Source: Escherichia phage vB_EcoM_ESCO9. From it: a stretch of DNA of 64,000 nucleotides. A program made the translations under genes and the position numbers. Shown here in pieces: positions 17,809-26,506 of this stretch; within the stretch, counting starts at the first letter, position 1, and each line of letters opens with the position of its first letter. The notes beneath the pieces were generated by a model. It worked only from the letters and a program-made list of their open reading frames with translations, searched no databases and was not told the origin of the DNA. The stretch lies in the sequence record OM386654.1, one strand, 5' to 3'.

Positions 17809-19581
17809 GTGTCTTATGTTGTAAATAAATATGGGTATAACATTGATCTAAGTCAAGAAGGACATACTGGGTGTCCTCGTTGTATGAAAGGAGGGCGTGA
17901 TCGATCACAAAACAATTTGATGGTATATGGCTTAGATGCCGATGAAGACCATCGAGGCGCACATTGTTTTTCTTGTGGCTTTACTATCCCTGATCAAAAA
18001 TGGTTAAATGCACACGGCGAAGAAATTGAAGAGGAGGATATCTTGGGTAGTGAGTTTAATCCAGAAGTACATGATAAACTAAAAGCCAGCACTGGAACTA
18101 ATCCAAAAGGTTATCGCGGTATTCGTGAAGATATCTCTAAGCCTTTCGGTGTACGTTATATGTACGATGAAGCTACTGGCGAAGTAATTTCAACACTATA
18201 CCCTACAACTAAAGATTACAATATTGCTGGGTATAAACAACGTATCGATCCAAAAGATTTCTCACATCCTATCGGTGAAACAGGAAAGGATTGTGATCTT
18301 TTTGGGGAGTTTAAATATCGTAACCACAGCGGTACTATTCTAATCGTTGGTGGTGAACACGATATGCTGGCTGCAACACAGATGCTAAAAGATTATAACA
18401 AGGGTGGTAAATATCCTGTTCCTGCTGTAGTATCTGGTACTTGTGGCGAAACATCTCTGCATAAGCAGCTTCAACATCGTTATAAATTCTTAGATCAATT
18501 TAAAAAGATTGTTCTATGTATGGATAATGATGAAGCTGGACGTGCAGCAGTTGAGAAATGTGTTAAAATCTTACCACGTAATAAAGTTTACGTGATGGAA
18601 CTAACGGATGTTAAAGATCCTAACCAGGCACTAGTAGAAGGAAAAATTGATCATTTTATTGATCGCTTTTTCAAAGCTAAACTGTACACACCTGCTGGTG
18701 TTTACGCTTCTAACGTACTATATGAAGCAGCCTTGGAATGCCTGGAAGCTAAAATGATCACCCTTCCTCCATTCATGCGTGTTGCTTCGAATATGTTAGG
18801 TGGAGGCTTGGTAGAAGAAGAAATTACTGTTATACTTGCAAAAACAAGTATCGGTAAGACACTGTTGGTTAACGAGATTACGAAACACATTATTCTTGCA
18901 CACCCAGAACATACTCTTGGTATTTTATCTTTGGAGGCAACGTATAAGAAGTATTCTCGTAACTTACTGTCTTCATTCTTGCATATCCCTCTTCACCGTA
19001 AAACGAAAGAAGAGAAGGAAAAGATTTTAAAAGATAATGAAGAAAAGATTCGTGATTTTTACGAACGAGAAGATGGAACACCACGTTTCTATGTTTGTGA
19101 TGATCGTGGAGCTAACGTAGATGTGATTAAAGAGAAGGTTCTGGAAATGATTATTTATTTCGGAGTAACCATTCTTGTTATCGACCCTTATTCTGACTTG
19201 CTTTCTGGTATGGACGTGTCACAACAAGAGGAACTTGCGACGTGGCTGAAACGCATTATGAAAGAGTATGCAATAACCATTGTTGTAATTTCACACGTTA
19301 AAAAGTCTTCTAACAATAGTAATGAACATATTGTAGAAGATGATGCAATGGGTAGTAGCTTCCTTGCTAAAGGTGCTGGTATCACAATTGCGCTGGAGCG
19401 TGATAAACAAGCTGAAGATCCTATGGAACGTAACCGCACATATTGCTACATTCTAAAGAACCGTGAGTTCTCAGAGACTGGTGCAGCAGGTAGTTTCTTC
19501 TATGAGATTAAAACAGCTACACTTCACGATTACGATCAATACACAAGTAACCCAGAGAATATTCCTGATGGTTCTTATTAA
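17809..19581 (+). CDS. DNA primase-helicase (Zn-ribbon/TOPRIM primase fused to DnaB-like helicase, T7 gp4-type)
   Basis: N-terminal CPRC...CFSCGF zinc ribbon; central acidic TOPRIM-like region; C-terminal P-loop LAKTSIGKT and Walker B LVIDPYSD; GTG start with RBS AGGAG. Confidence 0.7.
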   Translation: MSYVVNKYGYNIDLSQEGHTGCPRCMKGGRDRSQNNLMVYGLDADEDHRGAHCFSCGFTIPDQKWLNAHGEEIEEEDILGSEFNPEVHDKLKASTGTNPKGYRGIREDISKPFGVRYMYDEATGEVISTLYPTTKDYNIAGYKQRIDPKDFSHPIGETGKDCDLFGEFKYRNHSGTILIVGGEHDMLAATQMLKDYNKGGKYPVPAVVSGTCGETSLHKQLQHRYKFLDQFKKIVLCMDNDEAGRAAVEKCVKILPRNKVYVMELTDVKDPNQALVEGKIDHFIDRFFKAKLYTPAGVYASNVLYEAALECLEAKMITLPPFMRVASNMLGGGLVEEEITVILAKTSIGKTLLVNEITKHIILAHPEHTLGILSLEATYKKYSRNLLSSFLHIPLHRKTKEEKEKILKDNEEKIRDFYEREDGTPRFYVCDDRGANVDVIKEKVLEMIIYFGVTILVIDPYSDLLSGMDVSQQEELATWLKRIMKEYAITIVVISHVKKSSNNSNEHIVEDDAMGSSFLAKGAGITIALERDKQAEDPMERNRTYCYILKNREFSETGAAGSFFYEIKTATLHDYDQYTSNPENIPDGSY

Positions 19582-19591
19582 GGAGAGAAAT

Positions 19592-19987
19592 ATGAAAGAC
19601 AACGAAAATATCCTTTATGGGGTATCCCCTTCTGCGTTAGGGTATGATTATACGAAAACTGTTGCTAAGTTTAAATTTCAAGATGGATCGGAGTTAGAAC
19701 CATACGGTTATGCTTATGGTGAACATTTGTGGTTTGAGGATGGTTGCCTATACCTTCTCATTCAAACTACCAGTGGTTTTGTGGGAGAGCTTGTAGATCG
19801 TATGCTGAAAAATGTTAGTGATAAAGTTGTTCTTGATATCGCTAGTAAGGATGAAAACATTAATAACATTGTTTCCACTTTTAATGGTTTGACAGGCACT
19901 GTTAAAATTGAACGTGTAGGCTTGAGAAATACCAATGGTGTCCCTAATTGCCTTATTAAAGTACAACTAAGTGCTGACAATAAATAA
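19592..19987 (+). CDS. Hypothetical protein (131 aa)
   Basis: ATG with RBS AGGAGAG; in-frame upstream extension in ORF track overlaps primase and is unlikely. Confidence 0.45.
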   Translation: MKDNENILYGVSPSALGYDYTKTVAKFKFQDGSELEPYGYAYGEHLWFEDGCLYLLIQTTSGFVGELVDRMLKNVSDKVVLDIASKDENINNIVSTFNGLTGTVKIERVGLRNTNGVPNCLIKVQLSADNK

Positions 19988-19991
19988 CAAG

Positions 19992-20010
19992 AAGGGGCGA
20001 AAGCCCCTTT
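19992..20010 (+). terminator. Stem-loop AAGGGGC-GAAA-GCCCCTT
   Basis: GNRA-loop hairpin between genes; weak T-run. Confidence 0.4.
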
Positions 20011-20077: not shown

Positions 20078-22657
20078 ATGGGAGCTTTTACTTTCGACAT
20101 TGAAAGTAACAACTTGCTTAATGACGAAAGTGTAGATTACTTGGCAAGTCCATATCGTTTAAAAGATAGTTTTGCAATGCACTGTATTGTGTGCGAAAGT
20201 CATGATACTGGAGAGATTATTGCTTTCCATGATGGTGATAAATATCTTTTCGATGGTCGTCCGTATATTGAGACTGACGGAAAGTATGAATACCGACTGG
20301 AGGAATATGAGCATTTAGAATATACCCATTTCCCTCTTAAAGATTTTCCTGATTTTGTAAATGGAACAGGTAAATTTAAAGGTAATTCAAACTATAAAAT
20401 TACCAAAGTAGTTGGACATAACATCATTAACTTTGACTTACTGGCAATTAAATTATTTTTTAAACTCAACTACAGTATTAAGTACAATACTTGGGGTAAT
20501 AGTAACATTGAAATTTGTGATACTATGATCTTAAGTAAGACACTAAACCCTGATCGCTTCGGTGGTCATAGTCTGGCAGAGTTATCTAAGAAAGCTGGAG
20601 GGGATGTTAAAATTGATTTTAGAAAAAACATCCCTGAAACTGAAAGATTTAAAACATTTGCAGCAGATATGCTGTATTACTGTATTTACGATAACAAAGC
20701 TAACACCGCAGTGTTCCGTTATTTGATGGAAGAGTGGGGTGATTATAATAAGTGGTCTGAACCATTTAACTTAGAACAACGTGTAGCTGATATTATTACA
20801 CGTCAAGAGCACCGTGGCTTTGCTTTCAATATGAAGCAAGCAGAAGATAATATTCGTGATCTGGATGCTCGAATGGAAGCATGTCGTTTAGAGGCAGAAC
20901 CTGTGCTACCTCCTAAACCTGCTACTAAAGGTTATTTGAAATCATTCATTCCACCTAAACTACAGTTTAAAAAGAATGGTGAACCTTCAAGTAACATGAT
21001 AAAGTTTGCAGAGAAACATTCTGGTGAACTTGTACAAAAAGAAGATGGTTGGTGGTTATTTGCATTAGGTAAAGAGTTTAAACTGCCTATTCCAGCAGAA
21101 GAACCTATTTGTGATCCTACAGTACCTGCTACTTTAGACGACACTACACATATTAAAAATTGGTTAGTTGGTTTAGGTTGGAGTCCATCTGAATATAAAG
21201 ATAAAGATATCACTCTTAAATCTGGCACTAAGATTAAGAAAGATGAAGCACAAATGGAGAAAGCTATTCGTGACTATGTTGATCAAACATTAGCATCTAA
21301 CTTCTGCCAGGATAGATGTGATCATCTGGAGTGCACACCAGAAACTTTGGAATGGAAACTAAGAGATCGTATTGCTAAAGCTAAAGGTCGTGGTGTTAAG
21401 GTGCTTACTAACCCTTCCTTTACAAAAGGGCAAGAGAAGGATATTTGTCCTAACTTGGAAGCACTAGGTGAAAAGTTTCCTTATGCTACGCAGATTGTGC
21501 AGTATCTTACGTATAAACATCGTAGAAACTCTATTCTAGGCGGTGGTGCTGATTGGGAAGAGGATGAAGAGGATTACGATAAAGGTTATCTGGCGGCAGT
21601 AAGGGCTGATGGTCGTATACCGACTCCTGCTGCAACGTGTGATGCAGCTACGTCTCGTATGAAACATAGGTTAGTAGCAAATATCCCACGTGTAACATCT
21701 CTGTACGGATATGAAATGCGTAACTTATTTGGTGTAGAAGTTCCAAAATACTTCCAAATTGGTTATGACTTTGATTCTCTTGAGGCAAAAATAGAATCAC
21801 ACTACTGTTGGCGGTACGAGCAGGAACCACATGAATATTGTAATGCTCTATTATTGGAAAAACCTAATGATGTTCATACAATGATGGCTCGACGTATTTC
21901 TGACACTATTGGTCGTAAGTTTGAACGAAGCCCTGCTAAATCTGTTAAGTATGGTATTACTTATGGTGCTCAAGCTGCAAAAGTAGCAAAAACTATAGGT
22001 AGTGATATGTATACAGGACAGCTTGTATACGATGCTTTCTGGGAAGCTGCAAAACCTCTTGCGCTTCTTAAAGAACGTCTGCATGATTTTTGGGTTAAAA
22101 CAGGTAAGAAATACATTCTTGGTATTGATGGTAGGAAAGTACCTACACGATCTGCACACGCAATACTTAACTCTCTGTTCCAGAGTGGTGGTGTTATTTG
22201 TGCAAAAAGAGCAATGGTTATCTACGACGATCTTATCGAAGAAGAAGGATTAGCTGTTGACTTTTTTGTTGATGACTGGAAAAATAAGTCATTCGTTCAA
22301 CAAATGATTGCATATCACGATGAAGCACAGCTTGAAGTAACTCGTGATCTGGTGCATTTTAAATGGTTCTCTAAAGAATCTTTAGGTTGGACTCAAGTTG
22401 ATGATCCAGAAGAACAAAAGAAAATTGATAAAGAATGTTTGGATAAGGTTAATGCCTGGAAAGAAGAGGAAGAGAAACGTACTGGCAAGATTTGGGCTAA
22501 CGTACATGAATCTCCGAAAGGTGGTTGGTTTACAGCCTACAGTCGTGCTGGAGAATTAGCATCTATCGCTGTTAATAAAGCTGGTGAGTATTACAATCTT
22601 AATGTACCTCTCACTGCTGGTTACGATGTTGGTAGTTCATGGTCAACTTGTCACTGA
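20078..22657 (+). CDS. DNA polymerase, family A (Pol I-like) with N-terminal 3'-5' exonuclease region
   Basis: Motif B-like RRISDTIGRKFERSPAKSVKYGITYGAQ and motif C YHDEAQLEV; 859 aa; RBS AAGGAGGGAG. Confidence 0.8.
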   Translation: MGAFTFDIESNNLLNDESVDYLASPYRLKDSFAMHCIVCESHDTGEIIAFHDGDKYLFDGRPYIETDGKYEYRLEEYEHLEYTHFPLKDFPDFVNGTGKFKGNSNYKITKVVGHNIINFDLLAIKLFFKLNYSIKYNTWGNSNIEICDTMILSKTLNPDRFGGHSLAELSKKAGGDVKIDFRKNIPETERFKTFAADMLYYCIYDNKANTAVFRYLMEEWGDYNKWSEPFNLEQRVADIITRQEHRGFAFNMKQAEDNIRDLDARMEACRLEAEPVLPPKPATKGYLKSFIPPKLQFKKNGEPSSNMIKFAEKHSGELVQKEDGWWLFALGKEFKLPIPAEEPICDPTVPATLDDTTHIKNWLVGLGWSPSEYKDKDITLKSGTKIKKDEAQMEKAIRDYVDQTLASNFCQDRCDHLECTPETLEWKLRDRIAKAKGRGVKVLTNPSFTKGQEKDICPNLEALGEKFPYATQIVQYLTYKHRRNSILGGGADWEEDEEDYDKGYLAAVRADGRIPTPAATCDAATSRMKHRLVANIPRVTSLYGYEMRNLFGVEVPKYFQIGYDFDSLEAKIESHYCWRYEQEPHEYCNALLLEKPNDVHTMMARRISDTIGRKFERSPAKSVKYGITYGAQAAKVAKTIGSDMYTGQLVYDAFWEAAKPLALLKERLHDFWVKTGKKYILGIDGRKVPTRSAHAILNSLFQSGGVICAKRAMVIYDDLIEEEGLAVDFFVDDWKNKSFVQQMIAYHDEAQLEVTRDLVHFKWFSKESLGWTQVDDPEEQKKIDKECLDKVNAWKEEEEKRTGKIWANVHESPKGGWFTAYSRAGELASIAVNKAGEYYNLNVPLTAGYDVGSSWSTCH

Positions 22658-22684
22658 CATCTCTTTGATTTTAAAGGAGTTTTT

Positions 22685-23281
22685 ATGCTTACCGTATATG
22701 GTGAAGGTATTAATGATTTGGAAGGCGAGAGTACGCTACCTGGTAGTAAGAAACTAACGCCGCATTATATGAAATGGATGGCTATGTTGGGGAGGTGTTA
22801 CTCCCCTTGTCAACAAGAACGTGATCCTTGTTATAATGGGGTGACGGTTTGTGAAGAATGGAAACTGTTCTCCAATTTCTACTCTTGGTTGCAAACTTGG
22901 GATAACTGGGAAAACTTAGAACTTGATAAAGATATTATAGGAGGGAGAGTTTACTCTCCCGATACCTGTCTTTTAGTAACAGGAGATCTTAACAAGTTCT
23001 TAGCTTATAGAGTAAGTAAAAGATCTCATGGGACTATGGTAGGATGTAGTTACGAAAAAGATCGTAAAAAGTATAAAGCCCATATTCAACGTGATGGACG
23101 TGTTATAACACTGGGACGTTTTAATACTGAAATTGAAGCGCATCTTTGTTGGTTGAAGGCTAAGGCAGAACAGCTTACAAAATTCTTTGAAACTGAAGAT
23201 GAAAGAGTTGTTCCACATCTTAAAGCACTATATAATGAAATGCTTGAGCATGTAGAACAACACAAAGAGTGGACACGATAG
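22685..23281 (+). CDS. AP2-domain protein, possible HNH/homing-endonuclease-like
   Basis: YKAHIQRDGRVITLGRFNTEIEAHLCW resembles AP2 DNA-binding domains found in phage homing endonucleases; Cys/His-rich N-terminal half. Confidence 0.4.
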   Translation: MLTVYGEGINDLEGESTLPGSKKLTPHYMKWMAMLGRCYSPCQQERDPCYNGVTVCEEWKLFSNFYSWLQTWDNWENLELDKDIIGGRVYSPDTCLLVTGDLNKFLAYRVSKRSHGTMVGCSYEKDRKKYKAHIQRDGRVITLGRFNTEIEAHLCWLKAKAEQLTKFFETEDERVVPHLKALYNEMLEHVEQHKEWTR

Positions 23282-23289
23282 GAGAAAAT

Positions 23290-23883
23290 ATGAATATTGA
23301 AGATCAAAAAGTACGAGCTTTAGAAGTATTACGTATGTGCCAACTGGTAGATCCGTTTGCAATTGTAGCTGGCGGCGCTGTACGTGACTGGCGATTAGAG
23401 AAACCTGCGCAAGATATTGACATTTACTTGCGTATGCCTAACCACAATACACTCGTGCTAGTAGAGAAGTTTTTGATGTTGGGTGTTGGTGCACGTAATG
23501 TTAAACAACTTACTAAGCAAACAGAACACACTTATGCCGAACTACCACATTTGAAATGGGTATTTGAAGCATACTATAAAGACCTTAAGTTTAACTTTAT
23601 GATCATGGAAGAAGGTGTACGCAGTGAAATCGTATGGAACTTTGATGTAGCTATTTGCCTGTGTTACTGGGATGGTCAAAATTATGTATATCATCCAGAT
23701 TTTGAATTTGCACTGAAAACTAATATTTGTACTATTAATCACCGCTACACAGGTAAAGAAGCACACGTCCGTAAAATGGCAGAACGTTTCCCTATGTTCC
23801 GCTTTGTAAAAGACGTTTTCATTCCCAAAGAACCAGAAGTACGTACACTGGATTCATTTAACAACGAAGAATTTAAGATTTAA
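23290..23883 (+). CDS. Nucleotidyltransferase, polymerase-beta/CCA-adding-enzyme head-domain-like
   Basis: GGAVRDW...DIDIY matches the GGxVRD...DxD head motif of class II tRNA nucleotidyltransferases/poly(A) polymerases; only ~200 aa (no obvious body/tail domains). Confidence 0.5.
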   Translation: MNIEDQKVRALEVLRMCQLVDPFAIVAGGAVRDWRLEKPAQDIDIYLRMPNHNTLVLVEKFLMLGVGARNVKQLTKQTEHTYAELPHLKWVFEAYYKDLKFNFMIMEEGVRSEIVWNFDVAICLCYWDGQNYVYHPDFEFALKTNICTINHRYTGKEAHVRKMAERFPMFRFVKDVFIPKEPEVRTLDSFNNEEFKI

Positions 23884-23886
23884 GTG

Positions 23887-23916
23887 TTGACAAACATTAT
23901 AATTATGTGTTATTAT
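23887..23916 (+). promoter_or_regulatory. Sigma70-like promoter candidate (TTGACA-18-TATTAT)
   Basis: Consensus -35, acceptable -10, upstream of 23927 ORF. Confidence 0.35.
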
Positions 23917-23926
23917 TAGGACTTGA

Positions 23927-24325
23927 ATGACAGATAATCGTTCTAAAATCTTAGTCGAGACGTTCTACAGTAGAGAAACTAATCGTCTTGAGCTAACTAA
24001 AAAAGATGTTGAACCTCAAGATAATACCTTTTTTATTCAAATACTATGTCTCTTTGGTGGATACAATCGTTTAACAGTGAGAGTAGAAAACAAAGAGATA
24101 TCTGAAACCACTATCACAAAACGTGAACTAATGCTACTACAGGATACAATACGAGATGTTTTGGATAATCCTGGAAAAGCAAAAGTAATTAACCTTGGTG
24201 GAGAAAAGATACAAATCCTCCATTTCGAAAGTGGTGAAATAGGATTTGGTATTGGTCTTGGTAAATACCTGTTGGAAGAAACTGACGCTACTCTTTTACG
24301 AGAGTTTTGTGTTAAAGTAATGTAA
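23927..24325 (+). CDS. Hypothetical protein (132 aa)
   Basis: ORF after promoter candidate. Confidence 0.4.
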   Translation: MTDNRSKILVETFYSRETNRLELTKKDVEPQDNTFFIQILCLFGGYNRLTVRVENKEISETTITKRELMLLQDTIRDVLDNPGKAKVINLGGEKIQILHFESGEIGFGIGLGKYLLEETDATLLREFCVKVM

Positions 24326-25289: not shown

Positions 25290-25312
25290 TAGTTAAATAT
25301 TGTGTGAATATA

Positions 25313-25337
25313 AGGAGCCTAACGGCTCCTTTTCTTT
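25313..25337 (+). terminator. Intrinsic terminator (AGGAGCC-TAAC-GGCTCCT + TTTCTTT)
   Basis: Perfect 7-bp stem followed by T-run. Confidence 0.5.
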
Positions 25338-26473: not shown

Positions 26474-26506
26474 AAAGAAAAGGAGCCTAATGGCTCCTTT
26501 TTGTTT
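26474..26506. terminator. Bidirectional intrinsic terminator at convergent junction (A-run, AAGGAGCC-TAAT-GGCTCCTT, T-run)
   Basis: Perfect 8-bp stem flanked by A-tract and T-tract between last plus-strand gene and first minus-strand gene. Confidence 0.6.

Follow-up and report, generated by a model that had tools for sequence, protein, structure and literature searches.

Free-standing homing endonuclease genes of the T4 type, seg and mob, belong to the GIY-YIG and canonical HNH families, and for these T4 genes homing, the cleavage site and co-conversion have been measured. In the model of Goddard and Burt, homing endonuclease genes reportedly pass through a cycle of invasion, decay and loss. 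Here we analyse a gene resembling such elements in Escherichia phage vB_EcoM_ESCO9. The DNA considered is a stretch of 64,000 nucleotides from sequence record OM386654.1 (below, the window), in which an open reading frame (ORF) of 198 codons follows the gene of a family-A DNA polymerase.

The closest described genes are those of Barth, Dunham and Seed, who in 2023 defined the IPA-HNH homing endonuclease genes by an atypical HNH-related N-terminal domain, detectable by HHsearch only, and a C-terminal AP2 domain (PMC10448857). The founders of the family are gp59, gp114/115 and gp209 of ICP1 (PMC10448857). The count given in that paper is 431 genes in 240 phages; 29% of the genes adjoin DNA polymerase genes, which is the commonest neighbourhood (PMC10448857).

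The window protein shows BLASTP homology, over nearly its full length, to two proteins of Rheinheimera phage Barba31A, QCQ64615.1 (E=3e-37) and QCQ64599.1 (E=2e-35), both of which are listed as central IPA-HNH genes in Table S5 of Barth et al. (PMC10448857). It is also homologous to the ICP1_2001_A protein ADX89390.1 (E=1e-23), which, judging from its locus-tag number, should be gp209 of ICP1. Because proteins designated as IPA-HNH by Barth et al. are among its homologues, the window protein can be assigned to this family directly from sequence. The further traits of the family are also observed: an N-terminal domain not detected by Pfam is followed by AP2, and the gene is free-standing, lies near an essential gene and is variably present in two genera.

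The source phage is a phi92-like Escherichia myovirus of the genus Justusliebigvirus (Stephanstirmvirinae). Positions 20078-24325 of the window are 99.7% identical to Escherichia phage VEcB at 100% query coverage (megablast), and in 55 close records the coverage of this query is 80% or more. No phi92-like carriers were found among the rows examined of the tables of Barth et al. (PMC10448857).

The gene, its ribosome-binding site and its upstream neighbour are as follows.

22685..23281, + strand: IPA-HNH/AP2 homing-endonuclease-like ORF, 198 amino acids plus stop (ORF listing; PHROG 953; homology to Table S5 of Barth et al.; ratio of nonsynonymous to synonymous differences, pN/pS)
22674..22679, + strand: Shine-Dalgarno box AAGGAG of this gene (sequence; junction alignment)
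20078..22657, + strand: family-A DNA polymerase gene, 859 amino acids, upstream neighbour and anchor of the insertion site (Pfam DNA_pol_A 4.5e-13; PHROG 17 3.8e-111)

The ORF starts with ATG at 22685, 27 nt past the polymerase stop codon, and ends with TAG at 23279-23281; the AAGGAG box is 5 nt upstream of the ATG. The place after the polymerase gene that had been claimed for it is thus correct, with exact coordinates, a Shine-Dalgarno box of its own and a 27-nt gap. The 198-codon frame is intact in every gene-carrying relative examined, at least 23 genomes. Between alleles pN/pS (Nei-Gojobori) is 0.12-0.35 overall and 0.09-0.23 for residues 28-112 of the N-terminal domain, and by this measure the gene is under purifying selection. 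Homologues were found by tblastn in 1,467 phage records, often two to six per genome, and within the window the gene has no paralogue. The full-length AlphaFold2 model, built from an alignment of 33 sequences, has a mean predicted local distance difference test score (pLDDT) of 92.4 and a predicted template modelling score (pTM) of 0.85. The protein matches phrog_953 (8.5e-74), labelled "HNH endonuclease", which as an annotation does not amount to a test; the same name is already given to the gene in RefSeq records, among them those of VEcB, alia and PHB05.

Taken together with the population data given below, these observations make it probable that the gene is a free-standing homing endonuclease gene of the IPA-HNH family in a phi92-like coliphage. 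The original prediction, made from the letters of the window, was a selfish gene of the homing endonuclease kind beside an essential replication gene. It agrees with the presence/absence polymorphism, the decay products, the precise cassette, the similarity across genera and the homology to IPA-HNH proteins. Conserved presence, no nuclease motifs and clear membership of a non-endonuclease family would have spoken against it, and this combination was not found.

The insertion site in two phage genera

The following elements define the site.

22678..23277, + strand: putative inserted cassette, 600 bp, replacing 15 bp (GGCTTCTGCCCCTTT) of a hairpin (alignment of the empty phAPEC8 allele with nieznany, phiWec186 and the window)
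23278..23284, + strand: ATAGGAG, resident Shine-Dalgarno region of the downstream gene (sequence; junction alike in both genera)
22635..22657, + strand: last ~8 codons of the polymerase gene, hypervariable, a candidate for a recognition site or a tract of co-conversion (haplotypes; nucleotide diversity, pi; divergence of occupied and empty alleles)

In the sister genus Phapecoctavirus, 10 records representing 9 distinct genomes have the gene directly behind the polymerase stop codon; at least 50 do not have it. The empty site consists of the polymerase stop codon, the GC-rich hairpin AAGGGGCTTCTGCCCCTT, the motif ATAGGAG and the next gene. The folding energy of this hairpin is -17 kcal/mol (z = -2.9 relative to shuffled sequences). 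Compared with this arrangement, the occupied alleles carry the cassette in place of part of the hairpin, with junctions that are ambiguous by about 2 nt. Half of the Shine-Dalgarno box of the gene is resident: AAGG belongs to the former 5' arm of the hairpin and AG comes from the cassette. The stop codon is supplied by the resident ATAGGAG, so that TAG 23279-23281 falls inside the Shine-Dalgarno region GATAGGAG of the next gene. Both genera have identical cassette junctions despite having different downstream genes.

The flanks of occupied and empty Phapecoctavirus alleles were compared in a small sample of phylogenetically non-independent alleles. The hairpin is kept in all five empty alleles and lost in all six occupied ones. 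The polymerase terminus, with a TCC serine codon, is identical in the five empty alleles, and in five of the six occupied alleles this codon is changed to AGC, AGT or ACA. Occupied and empty alleles differ at 4.9 positions in the last polymerase bin, compared with about 0.5 per 30 nt in the 560 nt before it, and the divergence clusters in the final ~20-30 nt of the polymerase gene. Loss of the hairpin and a rewritten terminus are what site-specific invasion with short co-conversion, or escape of the target site, would be expected to leave behind.

The cassette is more similar across the genera than its surroundings. Between the window and phiWec186 it is 86.8% identical, compared with 73% for the polymerase gene (77.7% for its last 600 nt), and at the boundary of the cassette the identity steps up from ~78% to ~90%. 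Since the cassette is closer between the genera than the polymerase gene is, these alignments indicate that it moved between them after their divergence.

In Justusliebigvirus, 27 records carry the gene when the gene itself is the query. With a gene-less allele as the query, 27 records are contiguous and 27 are split by the gene, and phage outra has an internal deletion of 448 bp. After removal of GenBank/RefSeq duplicates, about 23 genomes have the gene, about 25 lack it and one has the deletion. The 'empty' alleles of this genus share one 136-bp spacer that keeps the Shine-Dalgarno box and the ATG of the gene, together with an 88-bp copy of its 3' end at ~75% identity, still reading ...VVPH. 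As the spacer retains these three elements, the empty Justusliebigvirus alleles are, on sequence, old deletion relics and not virgin sites.

Diversity is high at this point of the genome. Among 13 alleles pi is about 0.01 in the neighbouring genes, 0.074 in the bin made up of the spacer and the final 58 nt of the polymerase gene, and 0.02-0.14 within the gene. The last eight polymerase codons occur as three haplotypes, each with and without the gene; all six combinations are present, and the distance of the markers to the junction is less than 40 bp. Among alleles, the gene too is a mosaic. Thus the polymorphism that was to be sought among relatives exists, and at the exact site in two genera, and the suggestion of a recombination hotspot agrees both with the diversity peak at the junction and with the shuffling of gene state relative to markers less than 40 bp away.

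Several further observations concern this locus and its relatives. In a subset of Justusliebigvirus alleles (ECGD1, pEC-M2929-1AR.1, ESCO32, KKP_3264, PaulScherrer), the match to the window gene begins at nt 81; the initial ~27 codons of these alleles (MVYGHGIFDGDSTVRSPGGAMHPGY...) belong to the type found in the Phapecoctavirus phage nieznany, and a recombination breakpoint lies inside the gene. The polymerase gene of relatives contains inteins at two sites, equivalent to window positions 21806 and ~21956. In phi92 a 245-amino-acid insert follows residue 576 (ESHY|CWRY), and in nieznany a 324-amino-acid insert follows residue ~626; both inserts open with CVP... and close with ...TGN, and the window polymerase has neither. 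Counting the IPA-HNH/AP2 gene, the polymerase locus of this phage group is host to three different selfish insertions. GC-rich intergenic hairpins closely resembling AAGGGGCTTCTGCCCCTT occur in the window at 19992-20009 (AAGGGGCTTTCGCCCCTT), 25312-25331 (AAGGAGCCTAACGGCTCCTT) and 26477-26502 (GAAAAGGAGCC...GGCTCCTTTTT). They could be candidate secondary binding sites of the AP2 domain, if it recognises GC-rich elements. Five records named 'Campylobacter phage' with host C. jejuni (MG065639, MG065645, MG065656, MG065689, MG065650) are 96-97% identical at this locus to phi92-like or phAPEC8-like phages of E. coli. Mislabelling or contamination seems likely.

The downstream neighbour of the insertion in Justusliebigvirus is the following.

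23290..23883, + strand: nucleotidyltransferase gene, downstream neighbour in Justusliebigvirus (PHROG 1614 1e-34; start annotated in VEcB and alia)

In the mechanical ORF list this gene starts with GTG at 23269 and overlaps the end of the IPA-HNH/AP2 gene. The ATG at 23290, annotated in relatives and preceded by AGGAG, is the more plausible start. Farther upstream, a T7-like primase-helicase gene occupies 17809-19581. Promoter and terminator scans revealed no dedicated signal between the polymerase gene and the IPA-HNH/AP2 gene, and promoter-like matches were at chance level (24 found versus 23 +/- 4.4 expected). As no promoter- or terminator-like site separates the two genes, the IPA-HNH/AP2 gene is probably co-transcribed with the replication module. 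Between the primase-helicase and polymerase genes there is an ORF of 131 amino acids (19592-19987, + strand), annotated as 'endonuclease' or 'endonuclease/hydrolase' in VEcB, phi92 and ECGD1 and without a Pfam match at E<=0.01; a second and lower peak of diversity (pi 0.03-0.05 at 19500-19900) falls on this ORF. Assignment of the IPA-HNH/AP2 gene to a defence system was considered and rejected, as PADLOC produced two marginal matches and no passing stretch.

The domains of the protein

The protein is divided into two domains and a tail.

23033..23179, + strand: AP2 DNA-binding domain, residues ~117-165 (WRI1 profile match; PF00847 in relatives; Foldseek)
23180..23278, + strand: C-terminal helical tail, residues 166-198 (model helices 166-170 and 176-191; relic alignments)
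22685..23020, + strand: N-terminal IPA-HNH domain, residues 1-112, in which a beta-beta-alpha unit comes after a helical subdomain (AlphaFold2 models; family profile; Foldseek)
22916..23002, + strand: predicted beta-beta-alpha core, residues 78-106, putative metal or active site without histidine (model secondary structure; conservation)
22925-22933, 22952-22954 and 22991-22993, + strand: near-invariant codons of D81-K82-D83, Y90 and N103, respectively; C95 is near-invariant as well (conservation)

The AP2-like motif of the original prediction is confirmed at the level of the family profile and of structure, not by comparison of the single sequence with Pfam: the window protein alone is below the threshold of Pfam AP2, and an NCBIfam scan was likewise negative. 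A profile of 33 relatives compared with the PDB matches the AP2 domain of WRI1 (E=2.3e-4) and those of ERF096, AtERF1 and TEM1 over residues ~118-165, and 7 of the 33 relatives individually match PF00847 (best 1.9e-5). In the model, strands 121-124, 129-136 and 139-146 are followed by a helix (149-164). This three-stranded sheet packed on a helix, with the pattern G-V...K-[WY]-x-A-x-I...L-G-x-F-x-T-x-E-E-A, is that of AP2/ERF (PF00847), and the model superimposes on DNA-bound WRI1 at 1.5 A over 53 columns (Foldseek probability 1.00). The helical tail has a homologue, ~75% identical, that persists as a relic in the 'empty' Justusliebigvirus alleles.

Longer relatives contain additional modules, DUF723 or DUF4379 zinc fingers or a helix-turn-helix module. 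Such modular DNA-binding architecture is typical of homing endonucleases. In addition, some family members of 400-570 amino acids hold two copies of the N-terminal domain and are tandem duplications or fusions of two genes.

The AP2 domain varies among alleles. In PHB05 and arall the substitutions K127N, H132N, Q134K, R135V, V139M and I140K are grouped in AP2 strands 2-3 (window ~23060-23105), the surface that contacts DNA in AP2/ERF proteins. Between the window and PHB05, synonymous divergence is 0.44 in the AP2 segment and 0.10 in the N-terminal domain. Since the six changes cluster in the AP2 sheet, where synonymous divergence is fourfold that found elsewhere in the gene, the alignment suggests that the DNA-recognition module was exchanged, possibly with altered specificity.

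The N-terminal domain is modelled in the order helical part, beta-strand 78-81, loop, beta-strand 96-99 and alpha-helix 100-106. A second model, of this domain alone, has a pLDDT of 90.2. An exhaustive search with the domain profile retrieved 34,488 representative clusters at E<=1e-3, and conservation was computed over 153 domain instances from 146 mutually distant representatives. The conserved residues are D81 (96%), K82 (97%), D83 (97%), Y90 (99%), C95 (99%) and N103 (96%). D81 and N103, 22 residues apart, have the identity of an Asp and a helix Asn expected of metal ligands, and may act as such. Position 82, at the end of the first strand, is never a histidine in the 153 instances, and there is no conserved histidine anywhere in residues 74-107.

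The original prediction described the N-terminus as Cys/His-rich, and here it was mistaken. Residues 1-112 contain five cysteines and one histidine, no CxxC or HxxH pair and no zinc-finger signature; C95 is the sole near-invariant cysteine, and C38 and C56 are common. A CapR-type zinc finger, considered as a candidate, was rejected, as its cysteine pattern is absent from the window protein.

As for the fold, a Foldseek search of the PDB with the whole model yielded matches to AP2 only. With the model of the N-terminal domain alone, 13 PDB chains matched at E<=10, of which 8 are His-Me nucleases, none of them individually significant: PacI, the Gme HNH nickase (1.7 A over 36 columns), colicin E9, pyocin AP41 and TasH. 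The best match, PacI 3ldy, is likewise not significant (E=1.4, probability 0.21, template modelling score 0.44 over 122 columns). Profile matches of the domain to PDB sequences such as deoxycytidine kinase were discarded as being at chance level (E=0.33).

His-Me fingers without the histidine have been described. PacI uses a tyrosine in the loop, and its metal is held by one Asp and one Asn (PMC5714182, PMC4081073). On the other hand, the histidine-less His-Me domains of Smad MH1 and Enpp are catalytically dead and bind only (PMC5714182, PMC4081073). By analogy, the conserved Asp, Asn and loop Tyr of the window protein would fit the active, PacI-like option better than the dead one.

Proposed homing and its alternatives

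The mechanism we propose for the gene as a homing element is as follows. The gene would be transcribed together with the replication genes. Its AP2 domain would bind specific DNA at the end of the polymerase gene and in the intergenic hairpin of cassette-less genomes, and the beta-beta-alpha domain would cut nearby, using one metal ion held by Asp81/Asp83 and Asn103. Lys82 and/or the loop residue Tyr90 would stand in for the missing histidine general base, as the tyrosine does in PacI. In a co-infection, the break would be repaired from the cassette-bearing genome, so that the 600-bp cassette would be copied in with a short flank of the polymerase gene. This would destroy the hairpin and rewrite the polymerase terminus. 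As insertion removes the hairpin and the terminus is altered, the carrier is presumably immune to its own enzyme. The element would later decay, giving the relic and internal-deletion alleles.

We hold more tentatively to the enzymatic part of this scheme, in which the IPA-HNH domain is an active beta-beta-alpha-metal nuclease devoid of the catalytic histidine, with Lys82 and/or Tyr90 as the base or nucleophile and Asp81/Asp83 and Asn103 as metal ligands, and in these coliphages recognises the polymerase 3' terminus and the GC-rich hairpin. The family would then represent a distinct catalytic variant of homing endonuclease. As a whole this proposal is possible, at somewhat less than even confidence.

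A number of observations weigh against homing by an active nuclease. The catalytic histidine at the end of the first strand, the general base of His-Me nucleases, is replaced by lysine. Comparison of the N-terminal domain with established HNH families was negative in Pfam, in NCBIfam and in the PDB profile search. Alignments by hhalign to I-HmuI alone or to a 36-sequence profile of I-HmuI NUMOD4+HNH_3, also with trimmed cores and in local and global mode, had a probability below 1%; the profiles used were shallow, and the HHsearch detection reported by Barth et al. was not reproduced with them. The fold matches are individually insignificant, the best having E=1.4. Of the three groups without the histidine in the systematic classification, two consist of DNA binders that have no catalytic activity (PMC5714182). 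A literature search found no activity assay for any IPA-HNH protein. In Justusliebigvirus every empty allele is a relic, so that ongoing homing in this genus is not demonstrated, and a correlation of the polymerase-end haplotype with gene presence was sought there and not found; occupancy correlates with the terminus only in comparison with the virgin Phapecoctavirus alleles, which form the small and related sample noted above. Ordinary recombination could produce the same polymorphism with no homing driven by an endonuclease. The description of the N-terminal domain as HNH-like is thus partly upheld: the beta-beta-alpha unit in the models and the 8 of 13 Foldseek matches to His-Me nucleases agree with it, and the negative Pfam, NCBIfam, PDB and hhalign comparisons and the absence of a conserved histidine do not.

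These observations bear differently on the other explanations. The absence of Pfam and NCBIfam matches for the single sequence might suggest a chance ORF or a decaying, functionless pseudogene, which is refuted by the data on selection and homology and can safely be set aside: the gene has a Shine-Dalgarno box, a frame intact in at least 23 genomes, pN/pS of 0.12-0.35, a model with pLDDT of 92 and tens of thousands of homologues. More serious is the possibility of a domesticated, catalytically dead derivative, in which the beta-beta-alpha unit and AP2 only bind DNA and the protein regulates transcription or replication, or silences a gene of the host or of a competitor. Such a protein could do without the conserved histidine, as the inactive His-Me fingers of Smad MH1 and Enpp do (PMC5714182). 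Phage proteins containing AP2, the CapR+AP2 'CasPR' repressors, silence cas genes by binding alone (10.64898/2026.02.23.707548), and I-TevI, acting as an autorepressor, is a further parallel. Purifying selection and the position inside the replication operon, with no promoter of its own, are also in accord with a regulator. However, the presumed metal-holding Asp and Asn and the loop Tyr are 96-99% invariant in very distant relatives, which speaks against a pure binding scaffold, since it would not need them. Moreover, the gene is dispensable, being absent from about half of the close relatives, it decays, and it occupies one exact site in two genera. In other phages it is often multicopy and beside essential genes, which is typical of selfish nucleases and not of regulators, and the CasPRs use a Cys-rich CapR zinc finger that the window protein lacks. 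On balance a dead derivative seems quite unlikely.

An active nuclease that does not home, or no longer does so, has to be considered as well. Its use to the phage would lie in DNA processing or in attack on relatives or satellites present in the same cell (interference competition or marker exclusion), and the distribution of the gene would reflect ordinary recombination and deletion of an accessory gene. This would explain why all empty Justusliebigvirus alleles are relics and why flanking haplotypes are uncorrelated with gene presence, and the mosaicism shows that these phages recombine freely. In ICP1, and in the phi92-like phages Muut and Inny, nuclease domains of the kind linked to homing endonuclease genes have acquired a role against satellites (PMC10448857). 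The RepA_N-T5orf172 nucleases encoded by Muut, Inny and Mt1B1_P17 are presumed by Barth et al. to be directed at phage satellites of E. coli (PMC10448857); nuclease domains of this kind are therefore active players in the phi92-like group. On the other hand, one cassette is found with identical junctions in two genera whose downstream genes differ, and it is more similar across them than its flanks are; these features, with the precise loss of the hairpin and the concentration of change at the polymerase terminus in occupied Phapecoctavirus alleles, are what site-specific invasion would be expected to leave. We regard a nuclease without homing as unlikely. Homing and a role in competition are not mutually exclusive.

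For this particular genome the gene carries little weight, being one more selfish nuclease-like gene beside an essential gene, of a family known since 2023. The value of the locus lies rather in the phage group. The phi92-like and phAPEC8-like coliphages form a clean natural series, with a virgin hairpin site, an occupied site, a relic and a fresh deletion, in easily grown phages of E. coli, so that an IPA-HNH gene can be tested directly for homing, target recognition and co-conversion. As a complete set in two coliphage genera, this series appears to go beyond the literature consulted. Activity of the IPA-HNH domain with a base other than histidine would be a moderately important addition to the His-Me superfamily. 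If the domain does not cut, proteins annotated in their thousands as "HNH endonuclease" would be DNA-binding proteins. The locus is also a recombination boundary beside the polymerase gene, which is relevant to the comparison and engineering of these candidate therapeutic phages.

Likeness to described systems

Among enzymes of known structure, PacI (PDB 3LDY/3M7K; His-Me group 20 of Jablonska et al. 2017) is similar to the N-terminal domain in having no catalytic histidine and a helical part before the beta-beta-alpha unit. Both have Asp and Asn available as metal ligands and a Tyr in the loop between the strands. In the window protein this is Y90, which lies between strands 78-81 and 96-99 and, by analogy only, may be the counterpart of the PacI tyrosine. 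The group to which PacI belongs is predominantly viral (PMC5714182). Unlike the window protein, PacI has two Cys4 zinc sites per subunit and is a homodimeric restriction enzyme with an 8-bp palindromic site, whereas the window protein has no Cys4 motif or CxxC pairs and carries AP2.

I-HmuI (PDB 1U3E) and the HNH-AP2 proteins (Magnani et al. 2004) share the order of a nuclease domain followed by a DNA-binding module, with AP2 as the specificity module. In an ungapped register D81, K82 and N103 fall on D74, H75 and N96 of I-HmuI with the same 22-residue spacing, and LVT falls on WVT; as the hhalign runs gave nothing, this register is one made by inspection. I-HmuI differs in having His75 in place of the lysine, the window protein has no match to NUMOD4/HNH_3, and the segment before the beta-beta-alpha unit is helical in the window protein and a beta-sheet in I-HmuI.

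The T4 seg and mob genes and the cycle of invasion, decay and loss are paralleled by the free-standing intergenic position beside an essential gene, the presence/absence polymorphism, the decay products and the raised divergence of the flanks. The T4 genes belong to other nuclease families, and for the window gene homing is suggested by population-genetic footprints.

The genes of Barth et al. remain the nearest relatives. They agree with the window gene in the two-domain architecture, in escaping the Pfam HNH models, in being free-standing and in the position beside a DNA polymerase gene, and they differ in that the window gene occurs in a different lineage, the Stephanstirmvirinae coliphages. 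The relic alleles, the exact boundaries of the cassette in the hairpin and the histidine-less D-K-D/Y/N signature with its parallel in PacI appear to go beyond the main text of that paper (PMC10448857).

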